64,000 nt of DNA from a virus. The notes below the pieces were generated by a model, which made no database searches, was not told where the DNA came from, and saw only the letters and a list, made by a program, of their open reading frames with translations. A program made the position numbers and the translations under genes. This document shows, piece after piece, positions 2,794-61,592 of the stretch. The stretch lies in the IMG/VR virus record IMGVR_UViG_3300022910_000005, positions 16,685-80,684 of that record; one strand, written 5' to 3'. Every line of letters starts with the position of its first letter. The stretch's first letter is position 1.

Positions 2794-3107
2794 GCGCCAG
2801 CAGGGCTGCCGTCAGCCGTGCGTCCGGCGGCACGAACAAGGCCACCAGCGTCGGCGCTCGCACGCTGCCGAAGACCCGCTCGACCAGCAGCCACACGAAG
2901 GGCAACATCCCCGCTTACCGCTACTGGGAGCAGGGGTACGGCACGATCACCATCTACGGCCGCCGCGTGGTGCCGTTCCTGTCGGAGGAGACCTGCCGCC
3001 GGATCGCCCGCAACGCGGAGCGGGAGATGAAAGAGCCGATGGACGTACGTAATCCGCCCGGTACCGACCTGTGGGTCTACCGGCCTGTTGACGAGGAGCG
3101 ACTGTGA
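2790..3107 (+). CDS. Hypothetical protein
   Basis: GTGA overlaps at both ends. Confidence 0.55.
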   Translation: MSASRAAVSRASGGTNKATSVGARTLPKTRSTSSHTKGNIPAYRYWEQGYGTITIYGRRVVPFLSEETCRRIARNAEREMKEPMDVRNPPGTDLWVYRPVDEERL

Positions 3108-4000
3108 AGAAGAACCGCCGCCGCATCCTGCCGACCGTCGGCCGGATCTGGGGCTACCTCGGTGTGGCCCTGGCGCTGGGCACCAGCCTGGCCGGGAACG
3201 TTCAGTCCGCCCGCCTGCACACCCCGCTGGTCGATCCGTCCTGGACGGAGTACGCCTTCAGCGCCCTGCCGCCGCTCGTTGCGTTCGTCGGCATCGAACT
3301 GGTGAATCACAACCCGTGGACTCGCATCTGGTGGGGCAAGTACATCACCCGGGTGCTGTTGTTCGTGGTCGTGCCCGGCAGCGCTCTGGTGTCGTTCGCT
3401 CACCTGACGCTGGTCGGCTTGGACGCTTCAGCGGTGAAGGTGCCGGACGGGTTGCAGGACGTGCTGAACATCGCGACGGCGATCCTCACGTCGCTGTTGG
3501 TGGACGGCATGATCCTGGGCGGTACCGGTGCGCTGCTGCTGCCGACGAAGGTGGAGGACGAGCCGGAGGTGGTCGACGTGGTGCCGGTGGCGGCGATCGA
3601 GGCTTACCCGGACTGGCGTGGCGAGATGGAGCGCCTGCTGGCGACCGGGCGGACGGGTGAGCAGGAACTGCTGGGCCGCATCGCCGCCCTGACGGAGAAG
3701 ATCGAGAACCTCCCCGTCGCCCCGGCGCCGACCCCCCGGCGCGAGAAGGTCGTGAAGGCGACCCTGGCTCCGCAGGAGTCGCAGGACAAGAAGGACCAGG
3801 TCCGCTGGCCGATCGGCACGCACCCGCTGTGGAAGGCGTGGCTGGCGGCCCGGGGCACGAAGGACGCCTGGGACGCCGACCGGTACGTGCTGGAAACGAA
3901 AGAGCACCTGCACCGCGACATCAAGCAGAGTGCCGGGCAGACGGCGCTCAACCGGTGGGAGAACGCACTGAAGGCGGACCCGAGCCTGCTGAACGCCTGA
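3104..4000 (+). CDS. Multi-pass membrane protein, Spd/DUF2637-like
   Basis: Four hydrophobic segments with SLAGNV, ALPPL, SFAHL and VDGM motifs, then a soluble tail. Confidence 0.6.
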   Translation: MKKNRRRILPTVGRIWGYLGVALALGTSLAGNVQSARLHTPLVDPSWTEYAFSALPPLVAFVGIELVNHNPWTRIWWGKYITRVLLFVVVPGSALVSFAHLTLVGLDASAVKVPDGLQDVLNIATAILTSLLVDGMILGGTGALLLPTKVEDEPEVVDVVPVAAIEAYPDWRGEMERLLATGRTGEQELLGRIAALTEKIENLPVAPAPTPRREKVVKATLAPQESQDKKDQVRWPIGTHPLWKAWLAARGTKDAWDADRYVLETKEHLHRDIKQSAGQTALNRWENALKADPSLLNA

Positions 4001-4015: not shown

Positions 4016-4047
4016 AAGCCCGGCCAGCCCCGCCGCTGGCCGGGCTT
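4016..4047 (+). terminator. Hairpin terminator
   Basis: AAGCCCGGCCAGC/GCTGGCCGGGCTT stem followed by T-rich sequence. Confidence 0.75.
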
Positions 4048-4051
4048 TCGT

Positions 4052-4081
4052 TTGACAGGCGCATGACAAGGGTAGTAATGT
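4052..4081 (+). promoter_or_regulatory. Sigma70-type promoter with phased heptamers
   Basis: TTGACA-N18-TAATGT, second heptamer ATGACAA at 4063. Confidence 0.7.
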
Positions 4082-4115: not shown

Positions 4116-4397
4116 ATGAAGAACCTCCGCAGCGTCGTCCTGTCGCTCGGCCTGGTCGCTGGCGTCGTCCTGCTGTCCGCCTCCTCCTGCGACGAGGACA
4201 GCAAGTACAGCCAGCACAACAACGACGCTCCGACCGCCAAGGGCAACCACGACAAGGCCGACGTCGGCTACATGCCGGACGGCTTCAGCAACTACGCCAC
4301 GAAGTGCGACCGGCCCGGCATCCGGGTGTACGTCCTGTTCCACGAGGACGGCGCGTTCGGCTCCATCAGCGCCATCGCCGACCCGGCCTGCAAGTAA
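4116..4397 (+). CDS. Lipoprotein
   Basis: Basic N-terminus, hydrophobic stretch, LSASSC lipobox. Confidence 0.7.
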   Translation: MKNLRSVVLSLGLVAGVVLLSASSCDEDSKYSQHNNDAPTAKGNHDKADVGYMPDGFSNYATKCDRPGIRVYVLFHEDGAFGSISAIADPACK

Positions 4398-4669
4398 TGG
4401 CCGCCGACCGCCGCAAGGACACCAGCGAGGCGCTGACCGAGATCCGCACGGTGCACAGCCGCGCCTGGTCGGCGCTCGATCGGCTGGCCATGAACAACGG
4501 CCTGAGCGAGACGCGCCGGATCGAAGCGTCGTACGACGAGGACGGCGAGTACGTCCCGCCCAGCATCGAGAACTACCGCGACCCGGACGCCGACGAGATG
4601 GTGGCTGCCCTGGAGGCTTTCGTGGCCGCCACCGCCAAGTGGGCGAACCGCAAGCGTAAGGGGCTCTGA
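4397..4669 (+). CDS. Hypothetical protein
   Basis: TAATG coupling. Confidence 0.6.
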   Translation: MAADRRKDTSEALTEIRTVHSRAWSALDRLAMNNGLSETRRIEASYDEDGEYVPPSIENYRDPDADEMVAALEAFVAATAKWANRKRKGL

Positions 4670-4788
4670 TGGATCACTGGTACTGGGCCGGTGGATTTCA
4701 GGTCGCCGTCTGGGGAACGCTCATCCTCCAGGTCGCCACGGGCATCGTCCGTAGCATCGTCAGGGCGGCGAAGGAGGGCAAGAAGTGA
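4669..4788 (+). CDS. Small membrane protein (39 aa)
   Basis: MDHWYWAGGFQVAVWGTLILQV..., overlaps both neighbours; not in the ORF track. Confidence 0.5.
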   Translation: MDHWYWAGGFQVAVWGTLILQVATGIVRSIVRAAKEGKK

Positions 4789-6452
4789 GCCAGACGAAGA
4801 TCACCGGCAGCCTCCGGCAGCAGGTGTTCGACATCCGGCAGAACCCGCGCAAGCCGTCCGAGTTCCGTTGCGACGGCTGCGGCAAGTACTTCGTGCGCAC
4901 GGCGCTTCAGGTCGACCACATCGTCCCGGAGGCGGACTCGCGCCCGGAGGACCGGCTGGACCCGGACAACCTCCAGTTGCTCTGCTACACCAAGGGCTCC
5001 ACCCGCTGGAATTCCTGCCACAAGCGGAAGACCTACGAGGAGCATCGACGGCGTGCGGTCCGCAACCGGCCGAAGAAGGACTGGGGGCCGTTCTGGCGGC
5101 GGGCTGCCGTGTGCGGCCTGGTCTTCCCGGCCACCTGGAACTTCTGGGTCAACGGTCAGCAGGAGATGATCGACGACCTGGTGAACGGCGTGCTGATCGA
5201 GGCCACCCTCTTCTCCACCTATTTGGTCCAGAAAGGTTGGCGGATGCGCCGCCCCCGGCGGATCATTTCGGCCGACCCGGAAATGCTCGACGAGCCCGGC
5301 CAGGAGGAGGCGATCGACACGCAGCGGATCGTCGAAGCAGCCCGCGAGGTGATGGGCCTGAAGGGCAGCGTGACCGCCCGAGGTGGCCATGAATCGTTCG
5401 TGCTGTCCTACGCCGGAACAGGTTTCGCCGACCATGAGTCGGACAAGCGGTGGAGCCTCCAGGAGAAGATCACCGCGAAGATCGGCGACCGGTGGATCGT
5501 CGACTGGAACACGGCGGAGGACAAGGCCACGTTCACCCGCCGACCGCCGCTGCCGCGCAAGGTGCATCATCCGGGCCTGGACCCGAAGCGGAAGTGGCAC
5601 GTCCTGCCCGTCGCTGACGGGGCCGAGTTCGACCTGCTGGTGACGCCGCACATCCTGATGGCCGGGGAGACGATGTCCGGCAAGACGGCCATGATGCGGG
5701 CGATGCTGATCGCCGCCAGCCAGTCGGCCGCGACCAACGACAACGTCGAGATGAACCTGCTGGACCCGAAACAGATCGAGATGATCGGCTTCCAGGGCTG
5801 GCCGGGCGTGAAGAAGATCGTCACCGACCCGCACGACCTGTGGGCCTTCGCGATCGGCATGAAAGCCGAGATGGACCGCCGGTACCGGGAAGTGAAGGCT
5901 GGCCGGGCGGTGATGTCCCAGTTCAAGAAGATCATTAACTTCTGGGACGAGCAGGAAGAGTTCTACAACGCCATGCTGGAGTTGTGGCAGAGCGGTGAGA
6001 AGGACGAGAACGGTGAGCCGTACAAGCGCTCCGGAGAACGGGTTCCGCGTGCAGTGCGGGCCGTGGCCAGCCTGCTGGCCATGTCCCGTCGGTGCGGCAT
6101 CCACAACGTGATCGCCACGCAGTCACCGGACGCGCTGATCTTCGGCAAGTCCGGCGTCCGCCAGAACATGCCCGGCCGGGCCAGCGTCGGCGCGATCGAC
6201 GGCATCCGGGCGGGCTGGCTGTATGGCGACAGCAGTGTCGGCCGCGACATCCCCTCGAACCTGAAGGGTCGCGCGACGATTCAGATCGGCGACGGCAAGC
6301 CGTTCGAGGTGCAGACCTTCTGGGTGCCGGACCCGTCCGACGGCGACGCGAACTACGACAACGACCAGGAAGACTGGGCGACCCTGCTGCGGCTGGGGAT
6401 GCCCACCGAACAGTTGCCCGAGAAGTTCAATCACCTGCTGGAGGCGGCGTGA
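4785..6452 (+). CDS. HNH nuclease - membrane - FtsK/SpoIIIE ATPase fusion
   Basis: CDGC..VDHIVP..NLQLLC..CHKRKT, hydrophobic segment, Walker A GETMSGKT, LLDPK, Walker B INFWDE, ATQSP. Confidence 0.85.
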   Translation: MSQTKITGSLRQQVFDIRQNPRKPSEFRCDGCGKYFVRTALQVDHIVPEADSRPEDRLDPDNLQLLCYTKGSTRWNSCHKRKTYEEHRRRAVRNRPKKDWGPFWRRAAVCGLVFPATWNFWVNGQQEMIDDLVNGVLIEATLFSTYLVQKGWRMRRPRRIISADPEMLDEPGQEEAIDTQRIVEAAREVMGLKGSVTARGGHESFVLSYAGTGFADHESDKRWSLQEKITAKIGDRWIVDWNTAEDKATFTRRPPLPRKVHHPGLDPKRKWHVLPVADGAEFDLLVTPHILMAGETMSGKTAMMRAMLIAASQSAATNDNVEMNLLDPKQIEMIGFQGWPGVKKIVTDPHDLWAFAIGMKAEMDRRYREVKAGRAVMSQFKKIINFWDEQEEFYNAMLELWQSGEKDENGEPYKRSGERVPRAVRAVASLLAMSRRCGIHNVIATQSPDALIFGKSGVRQNMPGRASVGAIDGIRAGWLYGDSSVGRDIPSNLKGRATIQIGDGKPFEVQTFWVPDPSDGDANYDNDQEDWATLLRLGMPTEQLPEKFNHLLEAA

Positions 6453-7708: not shown

Positions 7709-7738
7709 TTGACAACCGCTTGCCAACTGTGAGAGACT
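7709..7738 (+). promoter_or_regulatory. Promoter with operator, leaderless start at 7745
   Basis: TTGACAAccgcTTGCCAA; TTGACA-N18-GAGACT-N6-ATG. Confidence 0.7.
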
Positions 7739-10532: not shown

Positions 10533-12821
10533 GTGCCCGGTCTCATCGGCCCCTGGGGCTTCGAGGGTCAGTCCAGCGGGACGCAACCGTCTGTCGCGAA
10601 CTCGGACGACTTCGGCGACCCGGCGTTCTCGTCGGTCTCGACCGGCGGTGGCATGTGCACGTACTCATCGGCGCAGGCCAAGTACGGCACGATGTCGCTG
10701 CGGTTCAACATCACGACGGCGGCAACGGCGGCGATCGTCGACTCGGCGGACACCGCCTCGTCCAGCGTCGCCGCGCACTGCTGGATCTACATCGGCACAT
10801 CACCCGGCGGCGAGATCCAGGGCCCGATCGTGTTCCGGAACGCTGCCGGTGCGGTGAACGTCGCTCGCGTGCAGATGACCGCGACGAACCAGTTCCGCAA
10901 CGTCTTCATCACGGGCGGCACCGGGACGGCCAGTACCGCGACCATCTCGACGGCCGGTTGGTATCGGGTCGAGGCCGTGGTGACCGGCGCGACCGGCGTC
11001 GCGTCGGCGCTGAGCATGACGTCGAACGTGTACGACTCGTCCGGCTCCCTGGTGGTGGCCGTCCCGGCATTGACCGGCGGCACGGGCGGCAACATCGACA
11101 CGATCCGCTGGGGCAAGGCAGGCGGTTCGTTCACCGTCGACTTCTGGCTCGACGACCTGCGGATGAACTTCGGGTCCGGTACCGAGATCGGCATCCCGAC
11201 CCAGACGTTGACCCCGGCTGGCCTGGCGACCGTCGAATCGTGGGGCACGCAGGTGCTCACCCCCGGCTCGGTGAACGTCACCCCGGCCGGGATCATCGCG
11301 GCCGAGCAGTGGGGCAGCGCCCTGCTGACGCCCGGTTCGGTGGCCGTGGCCCCGACCGGCCTGGCGACCGGCGAGACGTTCGGCTCCGACACGGTGACGC
11401 CCGGCCAGGTGGCTGTCTCCCCGGCGGGGATCGCGTCGGCCGCCGCGTTCGGCTCCGACACGGTCGCGCCCGGTTCCGTCAGCGTCGCGCCGTCCGGCCT
11501 GGCGACTGGCGAGGCGTTCGGGTCGGCCACGGTCACCAGCAAGGCGACGATCAGCCCGGCCGGGGTCGCGTCGGCCGAGGCGTTCGGGTCGGCGACCGCT
11601 GGCATCGTCGTGGTCGCCGTCAGCCCGTCCGGGCTGGCCAGCGGTGAGGCGTTCGGCAGCAGCATGGTGGTGCCCGGCCAGGCGGCTGTCGCCCCGGCGG
11701 GGATCGCGTCGGCCGCCGCGTTCGGCAGCGCCACGGTGGCCGCTGCGGCTGCCGTCATCGCTCCGGCGGGGATTGCGAGCGGCGAGGCGTTCGGGGCCGG
11801 GAGCGTCCAGCCTGGGGCTGCTGTGGTGGCACCGAGCGGGCTCGCCTCCGGCGAATCGTGGGGCACCGCGACGATCCGCAGCAGCGTCACGCCCACCGGC
11901 CTGGCCAGCGCGGAGGCGTTCGGGTCGGCCACCATCGTCAGCGTCGTCGCGCCGGGTGGGGTGGCGACCGGCGAACAGTGGGGCGCACCGGCCATCAGCC
12001 GGGCGCTGACGGCCTCCGGCATCGCGTCGGCCGAGGTGTTCGGGACCGCGTCCGTCGTGCCGGGAGCGTCCAACGTCGCGCCGTCCGGCGTGCCTACTGG
12101 GGAGACGTGGGGCGAGCCATTCGTCGGCGCGGGCGGGGCCCGGCTCAGCCCCGTCACGATCCCCACCGGGGAGCAGTGGGGAACCGCCGCGCTCATCCCC
12201 GGCCCGGCACCGACGATCCTCCCGCCGCCGATCGCGACCGGCGAACAGTTCGGCACGCCCCGGATCGACACCGGCCCGGCGCTGCCCGTCGGCCTGCCGT
12301 CCGCCGAAGCGTGGGGCGAGACGGCGGTCAAGCCGCAGCCGGTCGTCATCAGCGTGGCCGGGATCGCCAGCGCGGAAGCGTGGGGCCAACCGGACACGCT
12401 GCCGGGGGCCGCCGTCATCTCCCCGGCAGGCATCCCGTGGGGGCAGGCGTGGGGAAGCCCGATCGTCGGCCCCGGCTACACCCCGATCATCCCGGCCAGC
12501 ATCACTACGGGCGAGGCGTTCGGCACGCCATCCATCAGCACCCGGGCGACCATCTCGCCGTCCGGGATCGGCACCGGGGAAGCGTTCGGTCTGCCGACGC
12601 TGCACCTGCGGCTGCGCCTGGCCGGGATCGGCACCAGCGCTGCCTGGGGCTCGCCGACGATAGTCCTGGGTGTCGACCCGGACGGCCGGGACGTGGACCT
12701 GGTGGGCATCCTCGCTGACCAGGGCCGCATTGGCACTATCCTGGCTGAACAGGGCCGCGTCTCAACAGGACTCGCGACACAGGGGCGGATCACCGCCGGA
12801 TTGAGGGACCAGGATGGCTGA
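10533..12821 (+). CDS. Lectin-like N-domain plus about 22 PxG(I/L)AxxExFG repeats (fibre-associated)
   Basis: LamG-like motifs (GWYRVE, FWLDDL) followed by 20-23-aa repeats. Confidence 0.7.
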   Translation: MPGLIGPWGFEGQSSGTQPSVANSDDFGDPAFSSVSTGGGMCTYSSAQAKYGTMSLRFNITTAATAAIVDSADTASSSVAAHCWIYIGTSPGGEIQGPIVFRNAAGAVNVARVQMTATNQFRNVFITGGTGTASTATISTAGWYRVEAVVTGATGVASALSMTSNVYDSSGSLVVAVPALTGGTGGNIDTIRWGKAGGSFTVDFWLDDLRMNFGSGTEIGIPTQTLTPAGLATVESWGTQVLTPGSVNVTPAGIIAAEQWGSALLTPGSVAVAPTGLATGETFGSDTVTPGQVAVSPAGIASAAAFGSDTVAPGSVSVAPSGLATGEAFGSATVTSKATISPAGVASAEAFGSATAGIVVVAVSPSGLASGEAFGSSMVVPGQAAVAPAGIASAAAFGSATVAAAAAVIAPAGIASGEAFGAGSVQPGAAVVAPSGLASGESWGTATIRSSVTPTGLASAEAFGSATIVSVVAPGGVATGEQWGAPAISRALTASGIASAEVFGTASVVPGASNVAPSGVPTGETWGEPFVGAGGARLSPVTIPTGEQWGTAALIPGPAPTILPPPIATGEQFGTPRIDTGPALPVGLPSAEAWGETAVKPQPVVISVAGIASAEAWGQPDTLPGAAVISPAGIPWGQAWGSPIVGPGYTPIIPASITTGEAFGTPSISTRATISPSGIGTGEAFGLPTLHLRLRLAGIGTSAAWGSPTIVLGVDPDGRDVDLVGILADQGRIGTILAEQGRVSTGLATQGRITAGLRDQDG

Positions 12822-16561: not shown

Positions 16562-16613
16562 AGTTTACCAACGCCGAAGGGGACTTGTCAACTGTATGAC
16601 AAGTCCCCTTCGG
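16562..16613 (-). promoter_or_regulatory. Promoter TTGACA-N18-TAAACT inside a perfect 17-bp hairpin
   Basis: Stem 16574-16590/16597-16613; heptamers at 16585 and 16596. Confidence 0.75.
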
Positions 16614-16757
16614 GTGGTGCTACCGCGTCCTCGGGCTCGGCGTGCGGACCGGCGGGCTCCCGGTGCCCGGCCTCGGCGGCGGCGTCCCAGGCCCCGGGTT
16701 CGGAGCAATGGGCGACGGTCCAGGGTCACGGCTCATCAGCGATCACCTCCTCCCGAA

Positions 16758-19139: not shown

Positions 19140-19170
19140 ACAGTACTCCAGTTGACAAGCGGTTGTCAAC
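19140..19170 (-). promoter_or_regulatory. Promoter with palindromic operator
   Basis: GTTGACAA-gcgg-TTGTCAAC (19151-19170); TTGACA-N18-TACTGT on the minus strand. Confidence 0.75.
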
Positions 19171-26257: not shown

Positions 26258-26316
26258 AACCGGCTGTCACCTGCAAGAATATCGCAGGTGACAGCCGGTT
26301 GTCAATTGGTTGTCAA
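26258..26316 (-). promoter_or_regulatory. Promoter TTGACA-N18-TATTCT inside a hairpin, with three phased heptamers
   Basis: AACCGGCTGTCACCTGC/GCAGGTGACAGCCGGTT stem; heptamers at 26288, 26299, 26310. Confidence 0.75.
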
Positions 26317-30051: not shown

Positions 30052-30093
30052 ATCTTATGGGACTTGTCATTCGATTGTCAACTGTGCAAGACT
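30052..30093. promoter_or_regulatory. Overlapping divergent promoters sharing two heptamers
   Basis: Minus: TTGACA-N18-TAAGAT. Plus: TTGTCA-N18-AAGACT-N6-ATG. Confidence 0.7.
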
Positions 30094-32059: not shown

Positions 32060-32127
32060 GCCCGCCACCTCGTAGTAAGAGGTGGCGGGCTTCTGCGTTG
32101 ACAAGCGGTTGTCAAGTCTGTTACCTT
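32060..32127 (+). promoter_or_regulatory. Terminator followed by the operator-containing promoter of the conjugation operon
   Basis: GCCCGCCACCTC stem; TTGACAAgcggTTGTCAA; TTGACA-N18-TACCTT. Confidence 0.75.
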
Positions 32128-32159: not shown

Positions 32160-32453
32160 ATGAACCACCTGCACACGCTGGCCGTGCTCGCGGCTGCCCC
32201 CAACATCAGCGTCGACAAGATCAAGCAGTCGGCGCTGATGATTCTCACCGCCCTGATCTGCATCGGCCTCGCCTACATGACCCTCAAGGTCATCTGGAAG
32301 GACACCGACGACGGCGACTACAGCAGCGTCGCGAAGAAGGTGCTCACCTCGATCATCGGGATGATCCCCTTCGTCATGGCCGGATCGCTGGCCATCGCCG
32401 CCGGGTGGGCGACCGCGCTGCTGAGCCTGCTGACCGGGCTGGTCTCGAAGTGA
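32160..32453 (+). CDS. VirB2/pilin-like small membrane protein
   Basis: 97 aa, two TM segments, first gene of the T4SS-like operon. Confidence 0.6.
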   Translation: MNHLHTLAVLAAAPNISVDKIKQSALMILTALICIGLAYMTLKVIWKDTDDGDYSSVAKKVLTSIIGMIPFVMAGSLAIAAGWATALLSLLTGLVSK

Positions 32454-33262
32454 GCCCCGTGCAGCGGAACGACGACGACGGACGCCAGATCCGGCAGCCG
32501 TGGCTGGGCGCGAAAGGCGCACGCTGGCCGATGGACTGGACCTACGACGAGTGGGCGCTCGGCCTGTTCGGGTTCATCGTCGGCGGGACGCTGATCACCT
32601 GGGTGGTCCCGGCTGCCGTCATGGCGTTCATCGTGATCCGTTCCGCTGCACGGTTCATCTCGATCCGCAACAACCCGCACGCGCCCCGCAAGACGTACCT
32701 GCTCGTCGTGGCGATGATGACGACGCTCTGCCTGATCCTGTCCGTCAACCCGATGTTCTGGCTCAAGCCGATCTTCCTGCCGTTCGCGCTGGTCGCGTCG
32801 CTGTTCATGCCCTCGCGCACCGTGAAGGCGTACGGCAAGTACGTCGGCTGGAACCGGCCGCTGTCCTACTGGATCGCCATGCCGTTCCGGATCGCCCGGG
32901 GGCCGCGCCTGGTGCCCACCGACACGATCAACCCGGCGATGCTCGGCATGGGCCTCGACCTGGAGAGCCTCGACCGCGATGACACGGCCGACCTGGTGCC
33001 CGGCCGGATCGTCACGATCCCCCGGCTGAAGGCCCCGGCCAGGAAACCTGCGCCGCAGGCGCTTGCCCCCAAGCCCGTCAAGGCGACCATCACCAGCGCA
33101 CCGAAGAAGACCGCCCGCGTCGCCCGCACCCCGCTGACCGAGCGCCGCCTCGTCGCACCGGGCGCTCCGGTCCGCCACCGCACCCGCAAGCAGAACCTGA
33201 TCTACCGCACGCCGACCGGCCTGATGGTCTTCGGCACCGAGTACCGGATGGAGAGCCGCTGA
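32450..33262 (+). CDS. Conjugal transfer membrane protein (VirB3/TcpE position)
   Basis: Multi-TM, directly upstream of the VirB4-like ATPase. Confidence 0.55.
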   Translation: MSPVQRNDDDGRQIRQPWLGAKGARWPMDWTYDEWALGLFGFIVGGTLITWVVPAAVMAFIVIRSAARFISIRNNPHAPRKTYLLVVAMMTTLCLILSVNPMFWLKPIFLPFALVASLFMPSRTVKAYGKYVGWNRPLSYWIAMPFRIARGPRLVPTDTINPAMLGMGLDLESLDRDDTADLVPGRIVTIPRLKAPARKPAPQALAPKPVKATITSAPKKTARVARTPLTERRLVAPGAPVRHRTRKQNLIYRTPTGLMVFGTEYRMESR

Positions 33263-35949
33263 TGGGCCTGTTCGCCGCCCCCAAGAAGACGACCTGGACG
33301 ACACCGGTCCGCAAGACGATCGCTCTCGCGCCGACGGCCAAGCAGGTGGTGCGCAACCTGATCCTGCTGAAGGACGGCAGCGTGCTGGCCGGTTACCGGA
33401 TCGGCGACGCACGCTGGGACTTCACCGGCAAGGACGCGAAGATCATGCGGATGGACCAGGACGCGGACGTGTTCGCCGCGCTGGTCGGCCGGTCCTACCA
33501 CGAGCGGGTCACCACCCGCCCGCACCCGGTCGCGACCTGGGCCGGGAACCTCGACAAGCGGACGCCACGCCCGACGCCCGACATCCACACCTGCGACCTG
33601 AGCGCGGGCCTTTCCCAGGGCGACCTGCTGAACGGCCGGTGCGGCTGCGAGACGTGGGGCCGTCACCTGATCCGCCAGCAGGACGTCATCGCCCGTTCCG
33701 GCATGAACGACAAGATCGTCTTCCGCTACTTCGGCCTGACCGTGAAGGTGTCGCCGCGCACCGACCTTCGCAAGCAGATCAACGAGTTCGTGAAGACCGG
33801 CAAGGCGTCCGGCGTCGTGGCTCGGCTGATCGCCGACGAGAAGCGCGTCAGCGACATCGTGACCGGCTGGCCGGGCTCCAAGCGGATGAGCGAGTACGAG
33901 CAGGGCTGGCTGCGGGTCCGCTCGCTGTCGCCCGGCGTCATCCCCACCGGCATCCACAGCAAGGACCGGGGCGGCTGGGACGAACTGGCCCTGCCTGCCC
34001 TCGCGTCCGACACCCGGTGGGCCGAGACGCCTTTCGGCCGGACCGTGACCGTCACCTCGTTCGCCGACGGCAAGCAGGTCGAGTCGGCCGTGCGCGTGCT
34101 GACGATGGCGCGGATGGCCGACCTGAACTACCCGGAGAACGGGATGCCGCCGTGGCAGGTGCACGGCGAGTCCGTCCTGGACGCTTCCGGCCGCCCGTTC
34201 CCGGTGGAGTGGTCGGTCGTCGGCCGTCTGCGCTCCGGCGAGGAACTGGCCAAGGAGGTGGAATTCGAACTGCGGCGCGTCCAGCACGTCAAGGGCGACT
34301 ACGAGGATCACAGCGAACTGCCGCCGTCGAACGTCGGCAAGGCCATCGCCGTCGCCGTCGACACCCGCGACCAGGTCACCACCGGCCAGGCTGCTGTCGC
34401 CGCCAGGTTCCAGGGACAGATCAACGTGATCATCTCCGGCCAGGCGACCGAGAACCTCACCGCCGAGCAGGTGGTCGAGGAGCGGTGCGCCGCGTTCACC
34501 CGGATGTACGCCAACGCTGGCCTGCGGATGGACTTCACCGGCTCCGACAGCCAGTCGTTCATGCTGGCCAGCACGGTGCCCGGTGAGCCGTACGACCGGC
34601 TCGGCTTCCAGCGTCGCCTGCGGCTGCCGTTCCTGACGGCCGGGATGCCGAACGTCTCCTCGTCCGTCGGTGACGGCGTCGGCCCGTACCTGGGCCACAC
34701 CCGGGGAGCGACCCGGCGCGCGGTGCAGCACGACCCGCACTTCGCCACGGAAGGTCTGCGGACCGGCCGGGGCCAGAACATGCACGTCGTGCTCGGCACG
34801 CTCGGTGCCGGGAAGTCCGTCGTGACCGGCTCCATCGGCTACAACGCCGTCCGCCGGGGCATCCGCACGGTCATCTCCGACCCGTCCGGCCCGCTCGCGG
34901 CGCTGACGAAAATGCCGGAGATCGCGGACGTTTCGCAGGAGATCAACCTGCTGAACGGCGCGCGGGGCATCCTGTCCCCGGCCGCACTGATCCGCGACCC
35001 GCTGCTGACCGAGTACGACGAGCCCGGCCAGTTCGCGGAGGCCCTGGGCCAGGCGGCGGCCGAGCGGCGGGACCTGATGGTCGACATGGCCAAGCGCTGC
35101 CTGCCGGACTACCTGATGAAGGACCAGGCCGAAGCCCGCACGGAGGCGGCCCTGCGCCTGGCCGCTCGCCAGCACGCCGAGACGCGGGACGGCTGGAAGC
35201 AGACCGACACCATGTGGGACCTGATGCGTCCGCTGAAGGACAGCACCGACGACTGGGCGAAGGCCGTCCACGGTGCGCTGACGGACGCCTCCACCGCTCC
35301 GCTGCTGCGCCTCATGTTCCCGGAGCCGGGCGCTCCCGGCAGCATCGGGCACTACGACAAGACGCTCACGGTGATCACTACCCCTGGCATCGTGCGGGCC
35401 GTGGACGGCACGCCGCGCAAGGACTGGAACCCGCTGGAGGTCGGGGCCGACGTGGTGCTGCGCCTGGTCGGACTGTTCACCGACCGGCTGATCTACTCGA
35501 AGACCCGCAGCGAACGCTGCATCGCGATCTTCGACGAGGCCGAGTCGCTGACGGACTTCGGGCCGGGCCGGTCCATGCTGTCCCGGCTGGGCCGCGACCA
35601 CTCCAAGTGGAACATCGCCGTCTACCTGGCCGTGAAAAGCATCAACCCGCAGATGCTTTCGGGGGAGTTGAAGAACTTCCTCGCCAGCGTGTTCGTCGGC
35701 CGGATGGCATCGCGCGAACCGGCCGAGGCCGCGCTGGAACTGCTGGGGCTGACCGACAAGCGGTACGCGCAGGTGCTCATGGGCCTGTCCACGTACGTGC
35801 CCGGCGAGTTCGTCCACGCCGACGTGGCCGGGAACGTGGGGATGCTGAAGGTCGACGTGGACTACCACCCGGCCCTGAAGGACGCACTGCTGACCGACCC
35901 GACTCCGGAAGGCTCCGGCCACTGGACCCTTGAAGAGGAGATCGCCTGA
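33262..35949 (+). CDS. VirB4/ConE-like conjugation ATPase
   Basis: 895 aa, Walker A GTLGAGKS, DPSG, Walker B IAIFDEAE, RDHSKWN. Confidence 0.85.
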   Translation: MGLFAAPKKTTWTTPVRKTIALAPTAKQVVRNLILLKDGSVLAGYRIGDARWDFTGKDAKIMRMDQDADVFAALVGRSYHERVTTRPHPVATWAGNLDKRTPRPTPDIHTCDLSAGLSQGDLLNGRCGCETWGRHLIRQQDVIARSGMNDKIVFRYFGLTVKVSPRTDLRKQINEFVKTGKASGVVARLIADEKRVSDIVTGWPGSKRMSEYEQGWLRVRSLSPGVIPTGIHSKDRGGWDELALPALASDTRWAETPFGRTVTVTSFADGKQVESAVRVLTMARMADLNYPENGMPPWQVHGESVLDASGRPFPVEWSVVGRLRSGEELAKEVEFELRRVQHVKGDYEDHSELPPSNVGKAIAVAVDTRDQVTTGQAAVAARFQGQINVIISGQATENLTAEQVVEERCAAFTRMYANAGLRMDFTGSDSQSFMLASTVPGEPYDRLGFQRRLRLPFLTAGMPNVSSSVGDGVGPYLGHTRGATRRAVQHDPHFATEGLRTGRGQNMHVVLGTLGAGKSVVTGSIGYNAVRRGIRTVISDPSGPLAALTKMPEIADVSQEINLLNGARGILSPAALIRDPLLTEYDEPGQFAEALGQAAAERRDLMVDMAKRCLPDYLMKDQAEARTEAALRLAARQHAETRDGWKQTDTMWDLMRPLKDSTDDWAKAVHGALTDASTAPLLRLMFPEPGAPGSIGHYDKTLTVITTPGIVRAVDGTPRKDWNPLEVGADVVLRLVGLFTDRLIYSKTRSERCIAIFDEAESLTDFGPGRSMLSRLGRDHSKWNIAVYLAVKSINPQMLSGELKNFLASVFVGRMASREPAEAALELLGLTDKRYAQVLMGLSTYVPGEFVHADVAGNVGMLKVDVDYHPALKDALLTDPTPEGSGHWTLEEEIA

Positions 35950-37745
35950 TGTTGAAGGGTTTTCACCGCTACGTGCGGCTGGCCCAGTTATCGGTGGTGC
36001 TGATGCTGGTGGCGTTCGCACTGATCATCCACGCCGCCTCGGCCCACGCTTCCGCCCCGGCCGGGATCGACGTGCCGGGCGTGGAGGTATGCCCGAAGGA
36101 GGCACCGTTCGCGCAGACGCCGGAGTCCGGGCTGGCCGGGCTTCTCGGTGAGCGTCCGCTGAAGATCACCACCGACAACTCCCCCGATCACATCTGGACG
36201 ACGGGCGGCTTCGCTGGCCTCCAGTCGAACACCTACGACCTCGGCTGTGGCATGAACCCCGGCAACTGGGTGAAAATCACCAGCGCGCACACCGGTTCGT
36301 CGATGAGCAACTTCTTCCTGTCGGCCGGGGACTCGATGGTGTCGCTGACGGACTCGATCGACCGGCGGGCGTGGCAGCCGCAGTGGCTGCTGTCGTTCCT
36401 GGACGACTTCATGTTCCGGGTGACGGGGATGACGAACACGCTCATCCTGCTGCCGTTCCTGGGCCTGGCGCTGGCGCTGGTCGGAGTGATCCTCGTCTGG
36501 AAGTCCAACGATGGTGACTATGCCGCTGCCGCAACGAGTGTCGGCTGGATCTTCATCGTCCTTGCCATCACGTCGCTGCTGGTGACGACGCCGCTGATCG
36601 TCGCGAAGTTCGGCACGAGCGTCGGCTCCACGTCGGTCGCGGTGCTGAACGGCGGCGCGAACGCCTCCGACGCCGTCACCAACCAGGTGGTCAAGAACGT
36701 CGAGTACCAGGGCTGGCTGCGTCGCAACTTCGGCCCGTCGGACACGGAGGTCGGCAAGAAGTACGGGCCGGAACTGCTGGCGGCCAGCCGGGTTTCGTGG
36801 GCGGAACTGGACAAGGTCAACGCCCTGCCCGCCGACAAGCAGTCGCAGGCGCGTTCCGATCTGACGGACGCGAAGGCGAAGAAGTTCAAGGACATCGCCG
36901 CGAAGGTGAAGGACGAAGACCCGACGGCCTACAAGTACCTGACCGGTGAGATCATCGGCACCCAGGAGAGCATCGTCGAGGTGATCTTCCTGTTCATGGC
37001 GTGCGCGCTGCGGATGATGGTGGCGATCCTGATGATCGCCTGCGTGATCAGCCTGGCCCTGATCAGCATCCTGTGGGTGCTGCTGACGCCGGTCCTCATC
37101 CAGCCGCCGTTCAAGATGCTGGACGGGCGCACACTCGGCACCGGCCTGCTGAACGGTTCGATGCGCGCCCTGCTGTACGTCGGCGAAGCGGCGCTCGGCG
37201 CATGGCTTTACGGCTTCTTCCTCCAGGCGTGCATGGCCCCGGGCCTGAACCTCTGGTGGTCGCTGCTGCTGCTGACGATCGGCACGCTGATCGCCTGGTT
37301 CATGATCGGCCCGTTCGGCAAGTTGATGGCGATCCTGTCGCTGGGCCGGGCCGACACCGGAGCCTCCTACGTCGGCAAGGCCGTGAAGGGCGCGCTGATG
37401 GCCTGGGGCGGCGGCCTGATCGCCGGGCTGGCGGCGGCGAAGTCGGTCAACGATCACGAGGACGAGGAGCGGGCGGCGGCCCCAGAGCGGCTGTCTGAGA
37501 CGATCCAGCAGCCGCAGGTCGTGCACGCCACCGTCTACAACCCGTGGGAGCACCAGATGGACGACACGGTGCGCACCGAGCACTTCCCCGACGCAGACCG
37601 GACGCTGCCGACCGGCGGCACCCCGGAACTGCCGATGTACCGGCGCGGTGCCGAACCGGCCCCGCCGCCGGACGAGACCGCCAGCCCGTACGCCACGTAC
37701 GAGCGGGAAAGTTCTTCTGATGACAACGAGGGAGCGCACCTGTGA
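35949..37745 (+). CDS. VirB6-like polytopic channel protein
   Basis: Signal-like N-terminus, many TM helices, acidic tail; follows VirB4. Confidence 0.7.
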   Translation: MLKGFHRYVRLAQLSVVLMLVAFALIIHAASAHASAPAGIDVPGVEVCPKEAPFAQTPESGLAGLLGERPLKITTDNSPDHIWTTGGFAGLQSNTYDLGCGMNPGNWVKITSAHTGSSMSNFFLSAGDSMVSLTDSIDRRAWQPQWLLSFLDDFMFRVTGMTNTLILLPFLGLALALVGVILVWKSNDGDYAAAATSVGWIFIVLAITSLLVTTPLIVAKFGTSVGSTSVAVLNGGANASDAVTNQVVKNVEYQGWLRRNFGPSDTEVGKKYGPELLAASRVSWAELDKVNALPADKQSQARSDLTDAKAKKFKDIAAKVKDEDPTAYKYLTGEIIGTQESIVEVIFLFMACALRMMVAILMIACVISLALISILWVLLTPVLIQPPFKMLDGRTLGTGLLNGSMRALLYVGEAALGAWLYGFFLQACMAPGLNLWWSLLLLTIGTLIAWFMIGPFGKLMAILSLGRADTGASYVGKAVKGALMAWGGGLIAGLAAAKSVNDHEDEERAAAPERLSETIQQPQVVHATVYNPWEHQMDDTVRTEHFPDADRTLPTGGTPELPMYRRGAEPAPPPDETASPYATYERESSSDDNEGAHL

Positions 37746-38239
37746 TCACCTGGATGTTCCAGAGCCCCGACCGGCTGAAGCGGGTGGCGATCACCTTCGC
37801 GCTGACCTGCGTGACGCTGACGATCCTGCTGACGATCGTCCGGGTCCACGACCTGGCTTCCCACCGGCCGACCGCCGAGCCGACCTACGGGGCCACCACG
37901 GAATCGACCGCTACCGGCCTGCTGCCGCCGTCTCCCAGCCCCGAACCGGCTCCGGCGACCACGGAGTACGGACCGGCCACGCCGATCGCCCTGGAGGCCG
38001 CTCAGGCGTTCCTCCAGGGGGACCGGAGCCGGTTCGCTGAACTGGCCCAGCCGGACGTCGTCGAGTCCGCCAACGAAGCGCCCACGCCCGGCGGGCAGAT
38101 CACCGCGCCCGGCCGCGTCCTGCTCGGCGGGCCGACCCAGCAGAAGATCCTGGTGCCGACCAGCGAAGGCGACCTGACCCTCACCATGATCGTCATCGAC
38201 GGGGCCTGGAAGGTCGCCGGGATGGAGTACGCGAAGTGA
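37742..38239 (+). CDS. Bitopic VirB8-like protein
   Basis: One TM, P/T linker, NTF2-like end (GAWKV). Confidence 0.55.
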   Translation: MITWMFQSPDRLKRVAITFALTCVTLTILLTIVRVHDLASHRPTAEPTYGATTESTATGLLPPSPSPEPAPATTEYGPATPIALEAAQAFLQGDRSRFAELAQPDVVESANEAPTPGGQITAPGRVLLGGPTQQKILVPTSEGDLTLTMIVIDGAWKVAGMEYAK

Positions 38240-38367
38240 GCCGGTCGCAGCGGAGGATAGAACTGGACCTGAAGTACGGAATTGTCACCATGATGATCGT
38301 CGAGGCGGCCTGCTTCGCCGTTCCGTTCTGGCTGCTGGTTGCGCTCGTCCGGTGGTGGGCGGCGTGA
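38236..38367 (+). CDS. Small membrane protein (43 aa)
   Basis: GTGA overlaps; not in the ORF track. Confidence 0.45.
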   Translation: MSRSQRRIELDLKYGIVTMMIVEAACFAVPFWLLVALVRWWAA

Positions 38368-38564
38368 GCAACTGGGTGCCGCCGCACATTCCGATCCGGG
38401 ACCATCCCGGGCCGCCCCGCTGCTGGATGTGCAACCGGCGGCTGCGCTGGTGGCAGATGACCACCTGCCGGACCTGCTCGCCGCACTTCCACGACTTCAT
38501 GTGGCTGCACAACCACATGGGCCGCAACACGTTCGCCCCACCCGACCGATGGAGGAACCGATGA
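38364..38564 (+). CDS. Small zinc-finger protein
   Basis: CWMC...CRTC. Confidence 0.5.
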   Translation: MSNWVPPHIPIRDHPGPPRCWMCNRRLRWWQMTTCRTCSPHFHDFMWLHNHMGRNTFAPPDRWRNR

Positions 38565-39544
38565 AGATCTGGATCGCTGCGGGCGCAGCCAGCCTGGCCG
38601 GGCTCGTCGCGGTTCCGCTCGCCATCACCAGTCTGATGTTCGGCCCACCGCCGCTGCCCGCGCTCAGCATCGCCACCCAAGAGGTCTCCTCCTGCACGGT
38701 GCAGATCCCGGCCAGCGCGCGCACGGCCGGAGCACTGTCGGCCGAGCAGGTCGCGAAATATGCGTACGCGGCCGGTTTCCGTGGGCAGGACATCAACATC
38801 GCCGTGGCCGTGGCCCGCGCCGAGTCCGGCTGGCGGCCGACCGCAACCCTGCTGAACACCAACGGCAGCACCGACCACGGCCTGTTCCAGATCAACTCGA
38901 TCCACGCGGCGATCCTCGCGGAAGGGAACTGGGCTGACCCGGCCGACAACGCGAAGATGGCGTTCAAGGTCTGGACGCAGGCGGGCGGCAAATGGTCCCC
39001 GTGGGTGACGTACTGGCGCGGCACCTACAAGCAGTACCTGACGGACGTCGACCCGAAACCCACCTGCACCACACCGAAGTCGACCGGCCCGTGCAAGAAG
39101 GTGAGCGGTGAGTTCTCCAACGGGCTCATCCCGGCCAGCGCGCTCTGCACCCTGTGGACCAACCGCCACCACCGCCTGCGGGCCGACGCCGCCAACTCGT
39201 TCGACGCGATGAGCCGGGCGTACATGGCGAAATTCGGTGTGCGGCTGTGCCTTACGGACTCCTACCGGCCGCTGTCCGTGCAGATCGACCTGAAGCGGCG
39301 GAAGGGTTTCCTAGCCGCGAAGCCCGGCACGTCCAACCACGGCTGGGGTCTGGCTGTCGATCTGTGCGCTCGCGGCAGCCAGGAGAACCCGCAGCCGTGG
39401 AACCGTGGCACCGAGGACGACGTGTGGCTGCACCAGAACGCACCGAAGTTCGGCTGGGTCCACCCCGGCTGGGCTGAGCCGTCCGGCTCGAAACCCGAAC
39501 CCTGGCACTGGGGTTACAACCTCGACAAGGAGCACGCACCGTGA
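38561..39544 (+). CDS. Conjugative cell-wall hydrolase: lytic transglycosylase plus M15/VanY-like peptidase
   Basis: N-terminal TM; AESG, DHGLFQIN; DSYR, PGTSNHGWGLAVD, EPWHW. Confidence 0.88.
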   Translation: MKIWIAAGAASLAGLVAVPLAITSLMFGPPPLPALSIATQEVSSCTVQIPASARTAGALSAEQVAKYAYAAGFRGQDINIAVAVARAESGWRPTATLLNTNGSTDHGLFQINSIHAAILAEGNWADPADNAKMAFKVWTQAGGKWSPWVTYWRGTYKQYLTDVDPKPTCTTPKSTGPCKKVSGEFSNGLIPASALCTLWTNRHHRLRADAANSFDAMSRAYMAKFGVRLCLTDSYRPLSVQIDLKRRKGFLAAKPGTSNHGWGLAVDLCARGSQENPQPWNRGTEDDVWLHQNAPKFGWVHPGWAEPSGSKPEPWHWGYNLDKEHAP

Positions 39545-59903: not shown

Positions 59904-61592
59904 CTACGTCGTGGCGGGCTTCTGCGAATTCGCCCGGCGCTTCGTGGCGTTCGCGCTGGACGTGCCGCCCGACTGCCCACCGGAGCGGTTCCCCGGTCCC
60001 TTCGTGCCCCGAGGCTGGCCGGGCTGTGTGCCCTTGTCGTTCGTGCCGCCGCCGTTGGCCTTCGCCTTCGCGACCGCCTCCTGCTGCTTGGCCGCCTGCT
60101 CGGCCTCCACCGGCCCGGCCGCCGCAGCCCGGTACCGCTCGGCCAGGATCACCGTCGCGTCACCGGCCGCCGCCCGCTTCATCTTGTCCTCCAGCATGGC
60201 CTTCCAGCGCCGCACCTCCTCCGGCGTCGCGCCCCAGCGTCCCCACAGCGCCTCCTCCGGCACGCCCAGGTCGGCCATCTTCAGCAGGCTGTCGACCAGT
60301 TCGCCCTCGGTGCGGAACTCCGGATTGCGCCAGACGACCTCGATGTTCACTCCGGGTCCGACCGGGAGCCCGGCCATCTCCCGCACGCGCATCATCGCGT
60401 TCTCCAGCGGATCATTGTGCCCGCGCATCCGCTGCCGGACCTTCGCGACCAGGCCGGACTCGCTGGCCTTCAGGGTGTCGCCGTTCACGTTGTTCATGGA
60501 GCCGAGCAGGTACTGCGCCGGGGTGCGGCTGCGGGAGGCCATGTCGGTGACGTCTTCGGACTTCGCGGTGATGTAGCCGCCGATGTCGGCCGCCGCGAAC
60601 TGGCCGAACTTCGTCTCCGCGATGTCCGTGGTGATCGCCCGGTCCCGGCCGACCTCGACCGGTGGCGTCGGGTTGCCCTTCTCGTCCTCCAGCGGCCAGC
60701 CACTGATCCACTTCTGCGGGAACGCGCCGTAGTCCTGCGTCATCAGCCGGTCGGCGATCGTCTTGACGATCCGGTCCTGCGTGTCCGTCAGGTCGTAGAT
60801 CTCCGACTGGCCGCCGGTCAGCAGCCGGGGGTTGTTCGGCAGTTCGAACATCGGCACATAGTCCAGGCCGGACGAGCCGCTGGCTTCCTCTCGCGCGGTG
60901 GAGCGCAGGTTCCAGATCGGCATCAGCCGGTTCTCGAACAGGCCGGACGGGGACTGGACCATGAAGTTGGCCTGGTCCTTGCTGTTCGTCTTGAATTTGT
61001 GAATCTGGCCGGGCAGGTACAGGGTCGCGAAGATCTGCCCCGTCCACTCGTCCACGAACACCTTCAGCGACGCGAGCGCGTCCTGCCGGTTGGAACCGGA
61101 CGCGAACGCCACGACCACCTGGCTGCTGTGCTCGACGTAGATCTTCGGCCGCTTCGGGTTGCTCCTGTTGCGCTCGATCAGCAGGTACGAGTTGCCGGTG
61201 ATCGCCGCTTCCAGAAGGCCCTGGTCGAAGAAGGTGTCCAGGTTGTTGGACTGCCAGATCGCCTGCATCGGAGCGTCGGTCGCGAGCGGGTCCTCGGACT
61301 TCGTGTCGATCGACGGATCGCCGTCGGTGTCCTCGGTGACGAAGAAGCCCTCGACGGCCATCCGCTCGCACATCGCGTCGATCACGAGACCGATGTAGTT
61401 GGCGCGGCTCATCTTCAGGATGCGCCGGAACTCGTCCTGAGCCTGCGGCGCGAGCCACGGCAGCGGGAAGTCGCCCCGGTAGTAATCGTCGTACATGTTG
61501 ATGCCCGGACGCCGGTCCTGGAGAACGGCATACAGCCGGTTCACCCACCAGAGCGGACTGCCGGGCTCTGGGGTCTCCAGGCTGGTCACCAT
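59904..61592 (-). CDS. Portal protein (SPP1 gp6-like)
   Basis: YYRG, NYIGLVID, AFPQKW, SESGLVAK; follows terminase. Confidence 0.92.
   Translation of the reverse strand: MVTSLETPEPGSPLWWVNRLYAVLQDRRPGINMYDDYYRGDFPLPWLAPQAQDEFRRILKMSRANYIGLVIDAMCERMAVEGFFVTEDTDGDPSIDTKSEDPLATDAPMQAIWQSNNLDTFFDQGLLEAAITGNSYLLIERNRSNPKRPKIYVEHSSQVVVAFASGSNRQDALASLKVFVDEWTGQIFATLYLPGQIHKFKTNSKDQANFMVQSPSGLFENRLMPIWNLRSTAREEASGSSGLDYVPMFELPNNPRLLTGGQSEIYDLTDTQDRIVKTIADRLMTQDYGAFPQKWISGWPLEDEKGNPTPPVEVGRDRAITTDIAETKFGQFAAADIGGYITAKSEDVTDMASRSRTPAQYLLGSMNNVNGDTLKASESGLVAKVRQRMRGHNDPLENAMMRVREMAGLPVGPGVNIEVVWRNPEFRTEGELVDSLLKMADLGVPEEALWGRWGATPEEVRRWKAMLEDKMKRAAAGDATVILAERYRAAAAGPVEAEQAAKQQEAVAKAKANGGGTNDKGTQPGQPRGTKGPGNRSGGQSGGTSSANATKRRANSQKPATT

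Follow-up and report, generated by a model that had tools for sequence, protein, structure and literature searches.

The DNA analysed here, referred to as the window, is a stretch of 64,000 nucleotides covering positions 16,685 to 80,684 of the virus record IMGVR_UViG_3300022910_000005 in IMG/VR. It carries a gene in which an HNH endonuclease domain, a putative membrane hairpin and an FtsK/TcpA-like DNA translocase are joined in a single protein and, 26 kb away, an operon for a minimal type IV secretion system (T4SS) built around a VirB4-type ATPase. A first-pass annotation of the sequence had proposed that this fusion protein both processes and pumps DNA for the T4SS, in a mode of transfer that needs no relaxase. 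The coordinates of all features are collected in Table 1.

The open reading frame (ORF) of the fusion protein has a GC content at third codon positions (GC3) of 0.91, and it is counted as a real gene because this value fits the true genes of the genome, whose GC3 is about 0.75-0.98 in DNA of 66% GC. The family HNH (PF01844) matches residues 29-83 with an E-value of 4.6e-9 (36.7 bits against a cut-off of 21.4), and the family FtsK_SpoIIIE (PF01580) matches residues 281-372 with an E-value of 7.3e-13 (48.9 bits against a cut-off of 24). The range of the motor is extended by PHROG 1358, "FtsK/SpoIIIE-like", whose match spans residues 282-516. An AlphaFold2 model of the protein, built on 24 family members, has a pLDDT of 86 and contains a disordered Arg-rich linker at residues 154-173 between the hairpin and a small alpha/beta domain. 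Neither Pfam nor the model finds an FtsK_gamma or other winged helix-turn-helix (wHTH) domain at the C-terminus, where about 35 residues follow the motor.

The beta-beta-alpha elements of the HNH domain are formed in the model by strands at residues 35-37 and 41-45 and a helix at residues 78-93. The zinc ligands are C29, C32, C67 and C78, and the catalytic residues are D44-H45, N62 and H79. Across 24 aligned relatives, with identities down to 37%, no substitution occurs at C32, D44, H45, N62, C67, C78 or H79, and at least 90% have C29. The nearest HNH structures by profile search of the PDB are those of phage GVE2 (5H0M) and ZRANB3. To judge from the residues and the model, the domain retains an intact-looking beta-beta-alpha-Me nuclease site, in agreement with the zinc-binding HNH noticed in the first-pass annotation. 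The full FtsK ATPase which that annotation placed in the same ORF is also borne out. Its Walker A motif GETMSGKT (residues 294-301; G294 and G299-K300-T301) and Walker B motif D388-E389 are invariant in the same relatives, as are T445-Q446 and the arginines R459, R465 and R487.

The hydrophobic segment noted earlier as a membrane anchor is present and conserved. It is really a hairpin of two helices, and in this protein each of its two hydrophobic segments is weak (Kyte-Doolittle about 1.0). The hydrophobic peaks lie at conserved positions in 53 relatives, with medians of 1.68 and 1.36 and a maximum of 2.7, and in divergent relatives the hydropathy is clearly of transmembrane (TM) grade. Stretches rich in Arg and Lys lie on either side of the hairpin. 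By the positive-inside rule, both the HNH domain and the motor would be cytoplasmic in a protein that is presumably inserted in the membrane.

Table 1. Features of the window, with positions counted from its first nucleotide.
Feature	Position	Strand	Basis
298-aa membrane protein, separate transcription unit just upstream of the fusion operon	3104..4000	+	two TM-grade segments
Terminator-like GC-rich hairpin, 11-bp stem, then TTTCGTTT	4018..4053	+	read from sequence
Predicted promoter of the fusion operon: TTGACA -35, 18-nt spacer, TAATGT -10	4052..4081	+	read from sequence
93-aa predicted lipoprotein, first gene of the operon	4116..4397	+	signal peptide and LSASSC lipobox, GC3 0.98
90-aa acidic ORF, start overlapping the preceding stop (TAATG)	4397..4669	+	sequence, homologue in the related contig G001
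Putative 39-aa single-TM peptide ORF	4669..4788	+	overlaps TGATG (start) and GTGA (stop onto the fusion start)
HNH - hairpin - FtsK/TcpA-like translocase gene	4785..6452	+	555 aa, GTG start
HNH endonuclease domain, residues 1-93	4785..5063	+	Pfam match, residue conservation, PDB profile matches
Two long helices (101-123 and 125-153), putative membrane hairpin	5085..5243	+	AlphaFold2 model, hydropathy
Small alpha/beta domain, residues 179-252, N-terminal of the motor	5319..5540	+	AlphaFold2 model; inside Foldseek TcpA/FtsK alignments of ~350-405 columns
RecA-like FtsK-family motor, residues 273-520	5601..6344	+	Pfam, PHROG, alignment, PDB profile, Foldseek
Short C-terminal tail, conserved D530-W531...L534...GMP motif	6345..6449	+	alignment, model
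Prim-Pol/D5 primase-helicase	26313-28877		
Perfect paired heptamer TTGACAAGCGGTTGTCAA; the T4SS operon starts 45 bp downstream	32098..32115	+	motif scan
Two small membrane proteins opening the T4SS operon: 97 aa (2 TM) and ~285 aa (2-3 TM, start uncertain)	32160..33262	+	TM profile
VirB4-type ATPase, 895 aa	33262..35949	+	Pfam AAA_10, E 7.6e-19
Polytopic 598-aa protein (VirB6 position), bitopic 165-aa protein (VirB8 position), 43-aa TM peptide	35949..38367	+	TM profile, gene order
TM-anchored cell-wall hydrolase (VirB1 position)	38339..39544	+	SLT_3 lytic transglycosylase 4.3e-19, VanY/M15 peptidase 4.6e-14; one TM
Tape measure	47074-49947		
SPP1-type portal	59904-61592		
Terminase large subunit	61603-63285		

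The T4SS operon spans 32160-39544, at the distance from the fusion gene given in the first-pass annotation. The fold of its ATPase is well supported: the AlphaFold2 model (pLDDT 80.5) has R388 TrwK/VirB4 as its top Foldseek match (E 1.2e-20), with TM-scores of 0.56 and 0.61 over about 890 columns, and the VirB4 of Thermoanaerobacter and HerA proteins rank below it. A single-sequence phmmer search of the protein against PDB sequences gave no match, whereas the fold search succeeded. By the fold of this model, the 895-residue protein is a genuine full-length VirB4. The two small membrane proteins which open the operon match nothing in Pfam or PHROGs. The order of VirB4, large membrane protein, small protein and hydrolase is shared with Streptomyces linear plasmids. 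The operon is a minimal Gram-positive-type VirB4 system, and no coupling ATPase of its own is encoded between 32160 and 39544.

The replicon that contains these two loci is a tailed phage. The record measures 80,684 bp, probably derives from a leaf-litter metagenome and is rated 100% complete by CheckV; no terminal repeats were detected in it, and a related genome of 77.9 kb (G002) has direct terminal repeats. Of the sequencing runs listed as containing the DNA, none is from RNA, and the leaf-litter sample is the only one that contains it in full. Beside the phage genes of Table 1, the Pfam inventory of the replicon includes a capsid protein, an amidase, Endonuclease VII, an SF2 helicase and another HNH_3 match. 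It also lists a protein with a Prok-JAB domain (E 6.8e-14). Identity of the terminase with its counterparts in Arthrobacter, Streptomyces and Gordonia phages does not exceed 55%. In a set of about 186,000 species-representative genomes a single relative is found, on a 13-kb contig of a metagenome-assembled genome (MAG) of Mycobacteriales, and because this sole relative sits there the host probably belongs to the Mycobacteriales.

Six-frame searches of the whole replicon gave no match to MobA_MobL, TrwC, Relaxase, Mob_Pre or Rep_trans, no VirD4-type type IV coupling protein (T4CP; PF02534 had no match), and no tyrosine integrase or serine recombinase. The lack of a relaxase and of VirD4, first remarked for the window, holds in this way for the complete 80.7-kb genome. 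A weak AAA_30 match in the ORF inventory (E 3.8e-4) was considered as a relaxase-helicase and dropped, as the six-frame search did not reproduce it. Neither ParA nor ParB appears in the Pfam inventory of the 102 other ORFs. The fusion gene is the only FtsK_SpoIIIE gene of the replicon.

The fusion gene and the VirB4 gene are found together in related phages, as the first-pass annotation had suggested should be checked. Besides the studied genome (G000), eight IMG/VR contigs carry this VirB4 family. In each of the five viral contigs with a completeness of 78% or more (G000, G001, G002, G003 and G008), VirB4 is accompanied by an intact HNH-FtsK gene, and the four VirB4 contigs without it are fragments, 20-62% complete; those fragments which include the terminase run from it to just beyond VirB4. 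Three further contigs (54,154, 73,931 and 42,059 bp) are present in the homologue lists of both proteins. The alignment-based scan of viral contigs detected three of the fusion contigs and a single-protein scan none, and G008 was reached through its VirB4. Its fusion copy is intact, an in-frame TGA reported in it being the stop codon. Identity to the window across the related contigs is 67-88% for the terminase, 42-70% for VirB4 and 35-49% for the fusion. Given these values for VirB4 and the fusion, the combination is, on the evidence of the sequences, old within the lineage. Neither the fusion gene nor this VirB4 occurs in 50,697 deposited phage genomes. Among motor relatives without HNH, a VirB4-like ORF lies 5-8 kb upstream in 9 of 39 metagenome loci, and no phage structural genes lie in the flanks of these loci.

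The fusion itself represents a conserved protein family. A search of 5.8 billion proteins returned 36 full-length relatives of 517-561 residues and 36-97% identity, encoded on metagenome contigs of up to about 79 kb, and nearly all of them carry precomputed HNH and FtsK domains. Clustered at 50% identity, the full-length relatives from an exhaustive search form about 20 groups, beyond which are FtsK-domain proteins of 600-900 residues that align only from residue 150-220 on. ESM Atlas matches to the protein all score below 0.9 and serve as leads only. An HNH profile detects the domain in 62 of 187 relatives. In a motor-domain tree built with FastTree, which provides local supports only, the domain is kept in 54 of 54 full-length members of one clade (99% local support), and the two members of that clade without it are fragments. 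In the sister clades HNH is sporadic and forces at least five gains or losses on the tree. The VirB4-linked FtsK-domain proteins of plasmids fall in the half of the tree that lacks HNH. The mean distance is 0.47 for HNH and 0.45 for the motor, so the former is as conserved as the latter, and the pairwise distances of the two domains are correlated (Mantel r = 0.40, p about 5e-4). Together, the equal conservation and the co-variation argue against an independently mobile homing endonuclease.

Some more distant relatives have unusual architectures. P0059 (950 residues) and P0077 (975 residues) combine an N-terminal HNH with an FtsK motor, and P0059 shows a C-terminal FtsK_gamma wHTH, which gives it the build of a sequence-reading translocase of TraB/FtsK type that carries a nuclease. 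When distant HNH-FtsK fusions were used to seed a metagenome scan, only HNH-less relatives came back. P0012 (891 residues) has an intein with Hom_end and LAGLIDADG_3 domains between its HNH and motor stretches; its motor part aligns at residues 627-889, and the flanks of the intein align at 53% identity. In the loci L158-L164, on metagenome contigs of up to 85 kb, motor relatives without HNH occupy frames of about 1,376-1,448 residues, twice the usual length.

Among known systems, the motor is closest in fold to TcpA of the Clostridium perfringens plasmid pCW3. This is the top Foldseek match of the C-terminal two-thirds of the fusion (E 1.4e-16, at a sequence identity of only about 17-19%) and, in the PDB profile search, aligns with residues 281-519 (E 8e-14). 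The next Foldseek matches are the FtsK motors 6T8O, 2IUS and 2IUT (E 5e-14 to 9e-13, with 6T8O at 5e-14), followed by EccC/EssC and HerA. In TcpA as in the fusion an N-terminal membrane segment (putative in the fusion) precedes the FtsK-type motor, and in both cases the same element encodes VirB4, a polytopic membrane protein and a cell-wall hydrolase. However, TcpA is without a nuclease domain, and the fusion alone has HNH, no relaxase in its replicon, a T4SS operon 26 kb off and a tailed phage as its carrier. TcpA works with a dedicated relaxase, TcpM. Of the traits of a TcpA-type T4CP, the motor resemblance and the hairpin anchor (weak in this protein) are both present, and the fusion is the sole coupling-type ATPase beside the VirB4 set, with the genes non-adjacent.

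The chromosomal FtsK/SpoIIIE proteins belong to the same motor family and share the Walker A, Walker B and arginine motifs (PDB 2IUS, profile E 4.7e-18). They are characterized by an N-terminal 4-TM region, an alpha domain and a C-terminal gamma wHTH which reads KOPS (FtsK-orienting polar sequences). Identity with chromosomal FtsK was rejected, since the fusion lacks FtsK_4TM (PF13491), FtsK_alpha (PF17854) and FtsK_gamma (PF09397), is half as long and begins with HNH. TraB of Streptomyces, the double-stranded DNA translocase of plasmids and of actinomycete integrative and conjugative elements, is likewise an FtsK-like motor from mobile elements of actinobacteria, and TraB itself is membrane-associated. 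Transfer by TraB is independent of a relaxase (PMC4447253, PMC3429521, PMC12803027). With regard to membrane association of the TraB kind, the fusion has the motor, and its hairpin is marginally hydrophobic here and TM-grade in relatives. A C-terminal wHTH lets TraB bind 8-bp clt repeats, and TraB works without a T4SS, whereas the fusion has HNH, no wHTH and a VirB4 system that is always present. A TraB orthologue was ruled out, as Pfam and the model show no C-terminal wHTH or gamma domain. The comparison with TraB, TcpA and FtsK which had been recommended at the outset has in this manner been carried out, and by fold it ranks TcpA ahead of FtsK. VirD4/TraG/TrwB-type T4CP identity was also discarded, since the match to PF10412 (E 0.23) reaches 10.8 bits and its cut-off is 20.5.

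Among annotated proteins, those most closely related to the motor are FtsK/SpoIIIE-domain proteins encoded on plasmids of Streptomyces, Gordonia and Rhodococcus (for example NZ_CP029542, NZ_CP050694 and CP049837). They align from residue 74-105 on with 25-31% identity, E-values down to 1e-27 and coverage of up to 80%. The VirB4 operon of these plasmids is syntenic with 32.1-39.5 kb of the window; no relaxase is annotated on them, and MOB-suite classes them as "non-mobilizable". They differ from the fusion in their length of 670-700 residues, in having no HNH, in lying about 4 kb from VirB4 and in their plasmid location. On the Streptomyces linear plasmids NZ_CP029542.1 (L002) and NZ_CP050694.1 (L003) the order is FtsK-domain gene and ParA, followed in divergent orientation by small proteins, VirB4-like protein, membrane protein of about 800 residues, small protein and NlpC/P60, and this module may be an under-recognised relaxase-less transfer system.

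Another parallel is provided by TraD and TraC of the Enterococcus pELF plasmids, which comprise an FtsK-type coupling ATPase and a VirB4-like ATPase; the replicon is linear and also encodes a polytopic membrane protein. In pELF this pair of ATPases drives transfer, and no role of a relaxase is described (PMC13492992). However, TraD has neither a TM segment nor a nuclease domain, and a separate DNA/RNA non-specific endonuclease, orf1, opens the operon (PMC13492992); the host belongs to another phylum, and the pELF elements are plasmids rather than phages. For linear mycobacterial plasmids, T4SS-like systems without a relaxase are reported to be typical (PMC12803027). The HNH domain of the fusion was considered as a conjugative relaxase and rejected, since no relaxase family is found in the replicon; it could at most be a functional substitute. 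Relaxase folds (HUH, Rep_trans, Mob_Pre or related) form a covalent 5'-phosphotyrosyl adduct with DNA, whereas HNH chemistry is hydrolytic and non-covalent.

The fusion gene ends a series of translationally coupled ORFs, whose earlier members encode a predicted lipoprotein, a 90-residue product and a putative 39-residue peptide. The lipoprotein has one hydrophobic segment and no Pfam match. A hairpin upstream is predicted to close the preceding gene and to mark a new transcription unit. In G001, the closest related phage contig, homologues of the 90-residue ORF (58.5% identical) and of the 298-residue membrane protein (41.6% identical) also lie upstream of the fusion gene; the neighbourhood is conserved, and its flanking genes are shared, only in this closest relative. 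None of the ten ORFs neighbouring the fusion gene matches Pfam, and an assignment of the 298-residue protein to DUF2637 was dropped for the same reason. Further on, the 2-kb stretch 10754-12761 has a GC content of 70.8% and no ORF passing the filter on GC3 and GC2 (second codon positions), and a 762-residue ORF at 10533-12821 has no Pfam match.

A paired heptamer, TTGWCAA-N4-TTGWCAA, recurs in the window. It is pseudo-palindromic with 11-bp phasing and overlaps TTGACA -35 boxes; at up to two mismatches, 10 sites are found against 0.09 expected, at positions 955-983, 4052-4069, 7709-7726, 16585-16602, 19152-19169, 26288-26316, 30064-30081 and 32098-32115. All precede non-structural operons, and none falls in the structural/lysis arm at 40-64 kb. 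The -35 box of the fusion operon lies inside one of them, TTGACAG-N4-ATGACAA (4052-4069). From their sequence and placement, the sites look like an operator/promoter regulon of one DNA-binding regulator. Their presence at both the fusion and the T4SS operons is a sign of a common expression class, not of specific co-regulation.

The reading that we tentatively prefer, and which falls a little short of probable, is that the fusion protein acts as the coupling or translocase ATPase of the phage T4SS and that its HNH domain makes the nick or end otherwise made by a relaxase. It is drawn from sequence and models, and its coupling-ATPase part is adopted because the T4SS has no other coupling ATPase, the motor's nearest relatives adjoin VirB4 on plasmids, the fusion and VirB4 genes are inherited jointly and no relaxase is present. 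The protein would be a membrane-associated, probably hexameric DNA translocase of FtsK/TcpA type, with its two-helix hairpin keeping HNH and motor at the cytoplasmic face. HNH would nick or cut phage (or other) DNA and create an entry point or end for the motor, which would allow the ring translocase to engage replicating or circularised phage DNA. The motor would then pump this DNA toward the VirB4/VirB6-like channel without a relaxase, an arrangement that seems to be usual among linear actinobacterial plasmids as well. We infer insertion in the membrane, the hexamer, an interaction with the T4SS, the kind of DNA acted on, nicking as against cutting and the transfer between cells. The coupling-protein idea of the first-pass annotation is in this form retained in part: TcpA as top fold match, the single FtsK-type gene and a T4SS without its own coupling ATPase speak for it, whereas the loci are never adjacent and the protein is no TraB orthologue. 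The observations named beforehand as damaging to it were a relaxase and VirD4 elsewhere in the genome, a lack of co-occurrence with the T4SS and inactive HNH residues, and the sequences contain none of the three.

Several points weigh against this coupling role. An HNH enzyme forms no covalent 5' adduct which could pilot single-stranded DNA through a T4SS, and the chemistry of transfer would have to differ. The fusion and T4SS loci are 13-29 kb apart in the phages, and their link rests on co-occurrence within one lineage, which common descent alone could give. The hairpin of this particular protein is weakly hydrophobic, as stated above. Searches of the replicon turned up neither an integrase nor ParAB nor any other indication of a stable carrier state, and a purely lytic phage would have little time or need to conjugate. 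FtsK-like genes are also present in many phages without a T4SS.

This last point leads to another explanation, which we consider unlikely, namely that the protein is a T4SS-independent motor of phage DNA metabolism which reels in and cuts host or phage DNA, in chromosome degradation, genome resolution or segregation, or concatemer processing, and that its co-occurrence with VirB4 reflects shared ancestry. In PHROGs, FtsK/SpoIIIE-like phage proteins are filed under "moron, auxiliary metabolic gene and host takeover". FtsK-like proteins occur without VirB4 in 192 phage records, mostly of Bacillus and Mycobacterium phages. The fusion gene lies in the early/non-structural region in an operon separate from the T4SS genes, and the solved HNH closest to it by profile is a phage enzyme (GVE2). 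However, the phage FtsK-like proteins are far more distant from the fusion (E about 1e-10, coverage 42-54%) than the T4SS-linked plasmid proteins; none of them matches the HNH region, and their best alignments start no earlier than residue 153. For an enzyme acting on the nucleoid, it is difficult to see why a membrane hairpin should be conserved throughout the family. In addition, a terminase, Endonuclease VII and further nucleases are already available to the phage, and its T4SS operon would be left without a coupling ATPase.

It is also conceivable, and in our judgement improbable, that a membrane-anchored nuclease-translocase serves exclusion or defence and, alone or with the T4SS-like complex, captures and cuts the DNA of superinfecting phages or conjugating plasmids as it enters the infected or lysogenic cell. 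A membrane site would suit the interception of such DNA, and the pairing of a nuclease with an FtsK/HerA-type ATPase is a recurring logic of defence systems. PADLOC gives weak matches to SspH and mad8 (E 2e-9 to 2e-7, 29-33 bits), and HerA defence complexes are among the lower-ranked structural matches. These PADLOC matches are, however, confined to the P-loop region and far below family level, the neighbouring genes match no defence family, the HerA defence ATPases match its structure far less well than TcpA and FtsK do, and the Pfam inventory holds no methylase or other partner for telling self from non-self. Very improbable is a selfish homing-endonuclease module or decaying remnant, fused at the 5' end of the translocase gene with no role for the motor: free-standing HNH homing endonucleases are common in actinophages, this replicon has HNH_3 and Endonuclease VII, the intein of P0012 shows that selfish elements target the fusion gene, and HNH is patchy in the sister clades, but the domain is kept throughout its own clade with an invariant active site, is conserved like the motor and co-varies with it, and has in Pfam and in the model none of the extra DNA-binding modules typical of homing enzymes.

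In the literature searched, reviews of phage-plasmids included, from which subscription journals are mostly absent, there is no prior description of an HNH-FtsK/SpoIIIE fusion, of its strict conservation or of its setting in an intact tailed phage with a full VirB4 system. The component parts, a TcpA/TraB-like translocase, HNH and VirB4, are of known kinds; the fusion and its phage setting appear to be new. According to the usual view, a mobile element moves either in virions or by conjugation, and reviews of phage-plasmids state that conversion to conjugative mobility is accompanied by loss of phage genes. Here a virion module, a VirB4 T4SS and an FtsK/TcpA-type motor are encoded together. 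Since these modules are kept together across phages whose terminases are 67-88% identical, the combination would be under selection and not a recent chimera. Even if the preferred coupling role were wrong, a compact nuclease-plus-translocase would remain in a widespread group of soil phages without a cultured member. The fused, conserved HNH offers a testable answer to the question of how the motors of FtsK-type conjugative translocases and of relaxase-less linear replicons obtain a DNA end or entry point. The wider proposal, that a lineage of tailed actinobacterial phages moves its own genome or other DNA from cell to cell via its own relaxase-free T4SS, with transfer started by a nick or cut from the HNH domain of the coupling translocase, is in our view rather unlikely; if true, it would give these phages a second, virion-independent route of spread and reveal a new way of initiating conjugation.

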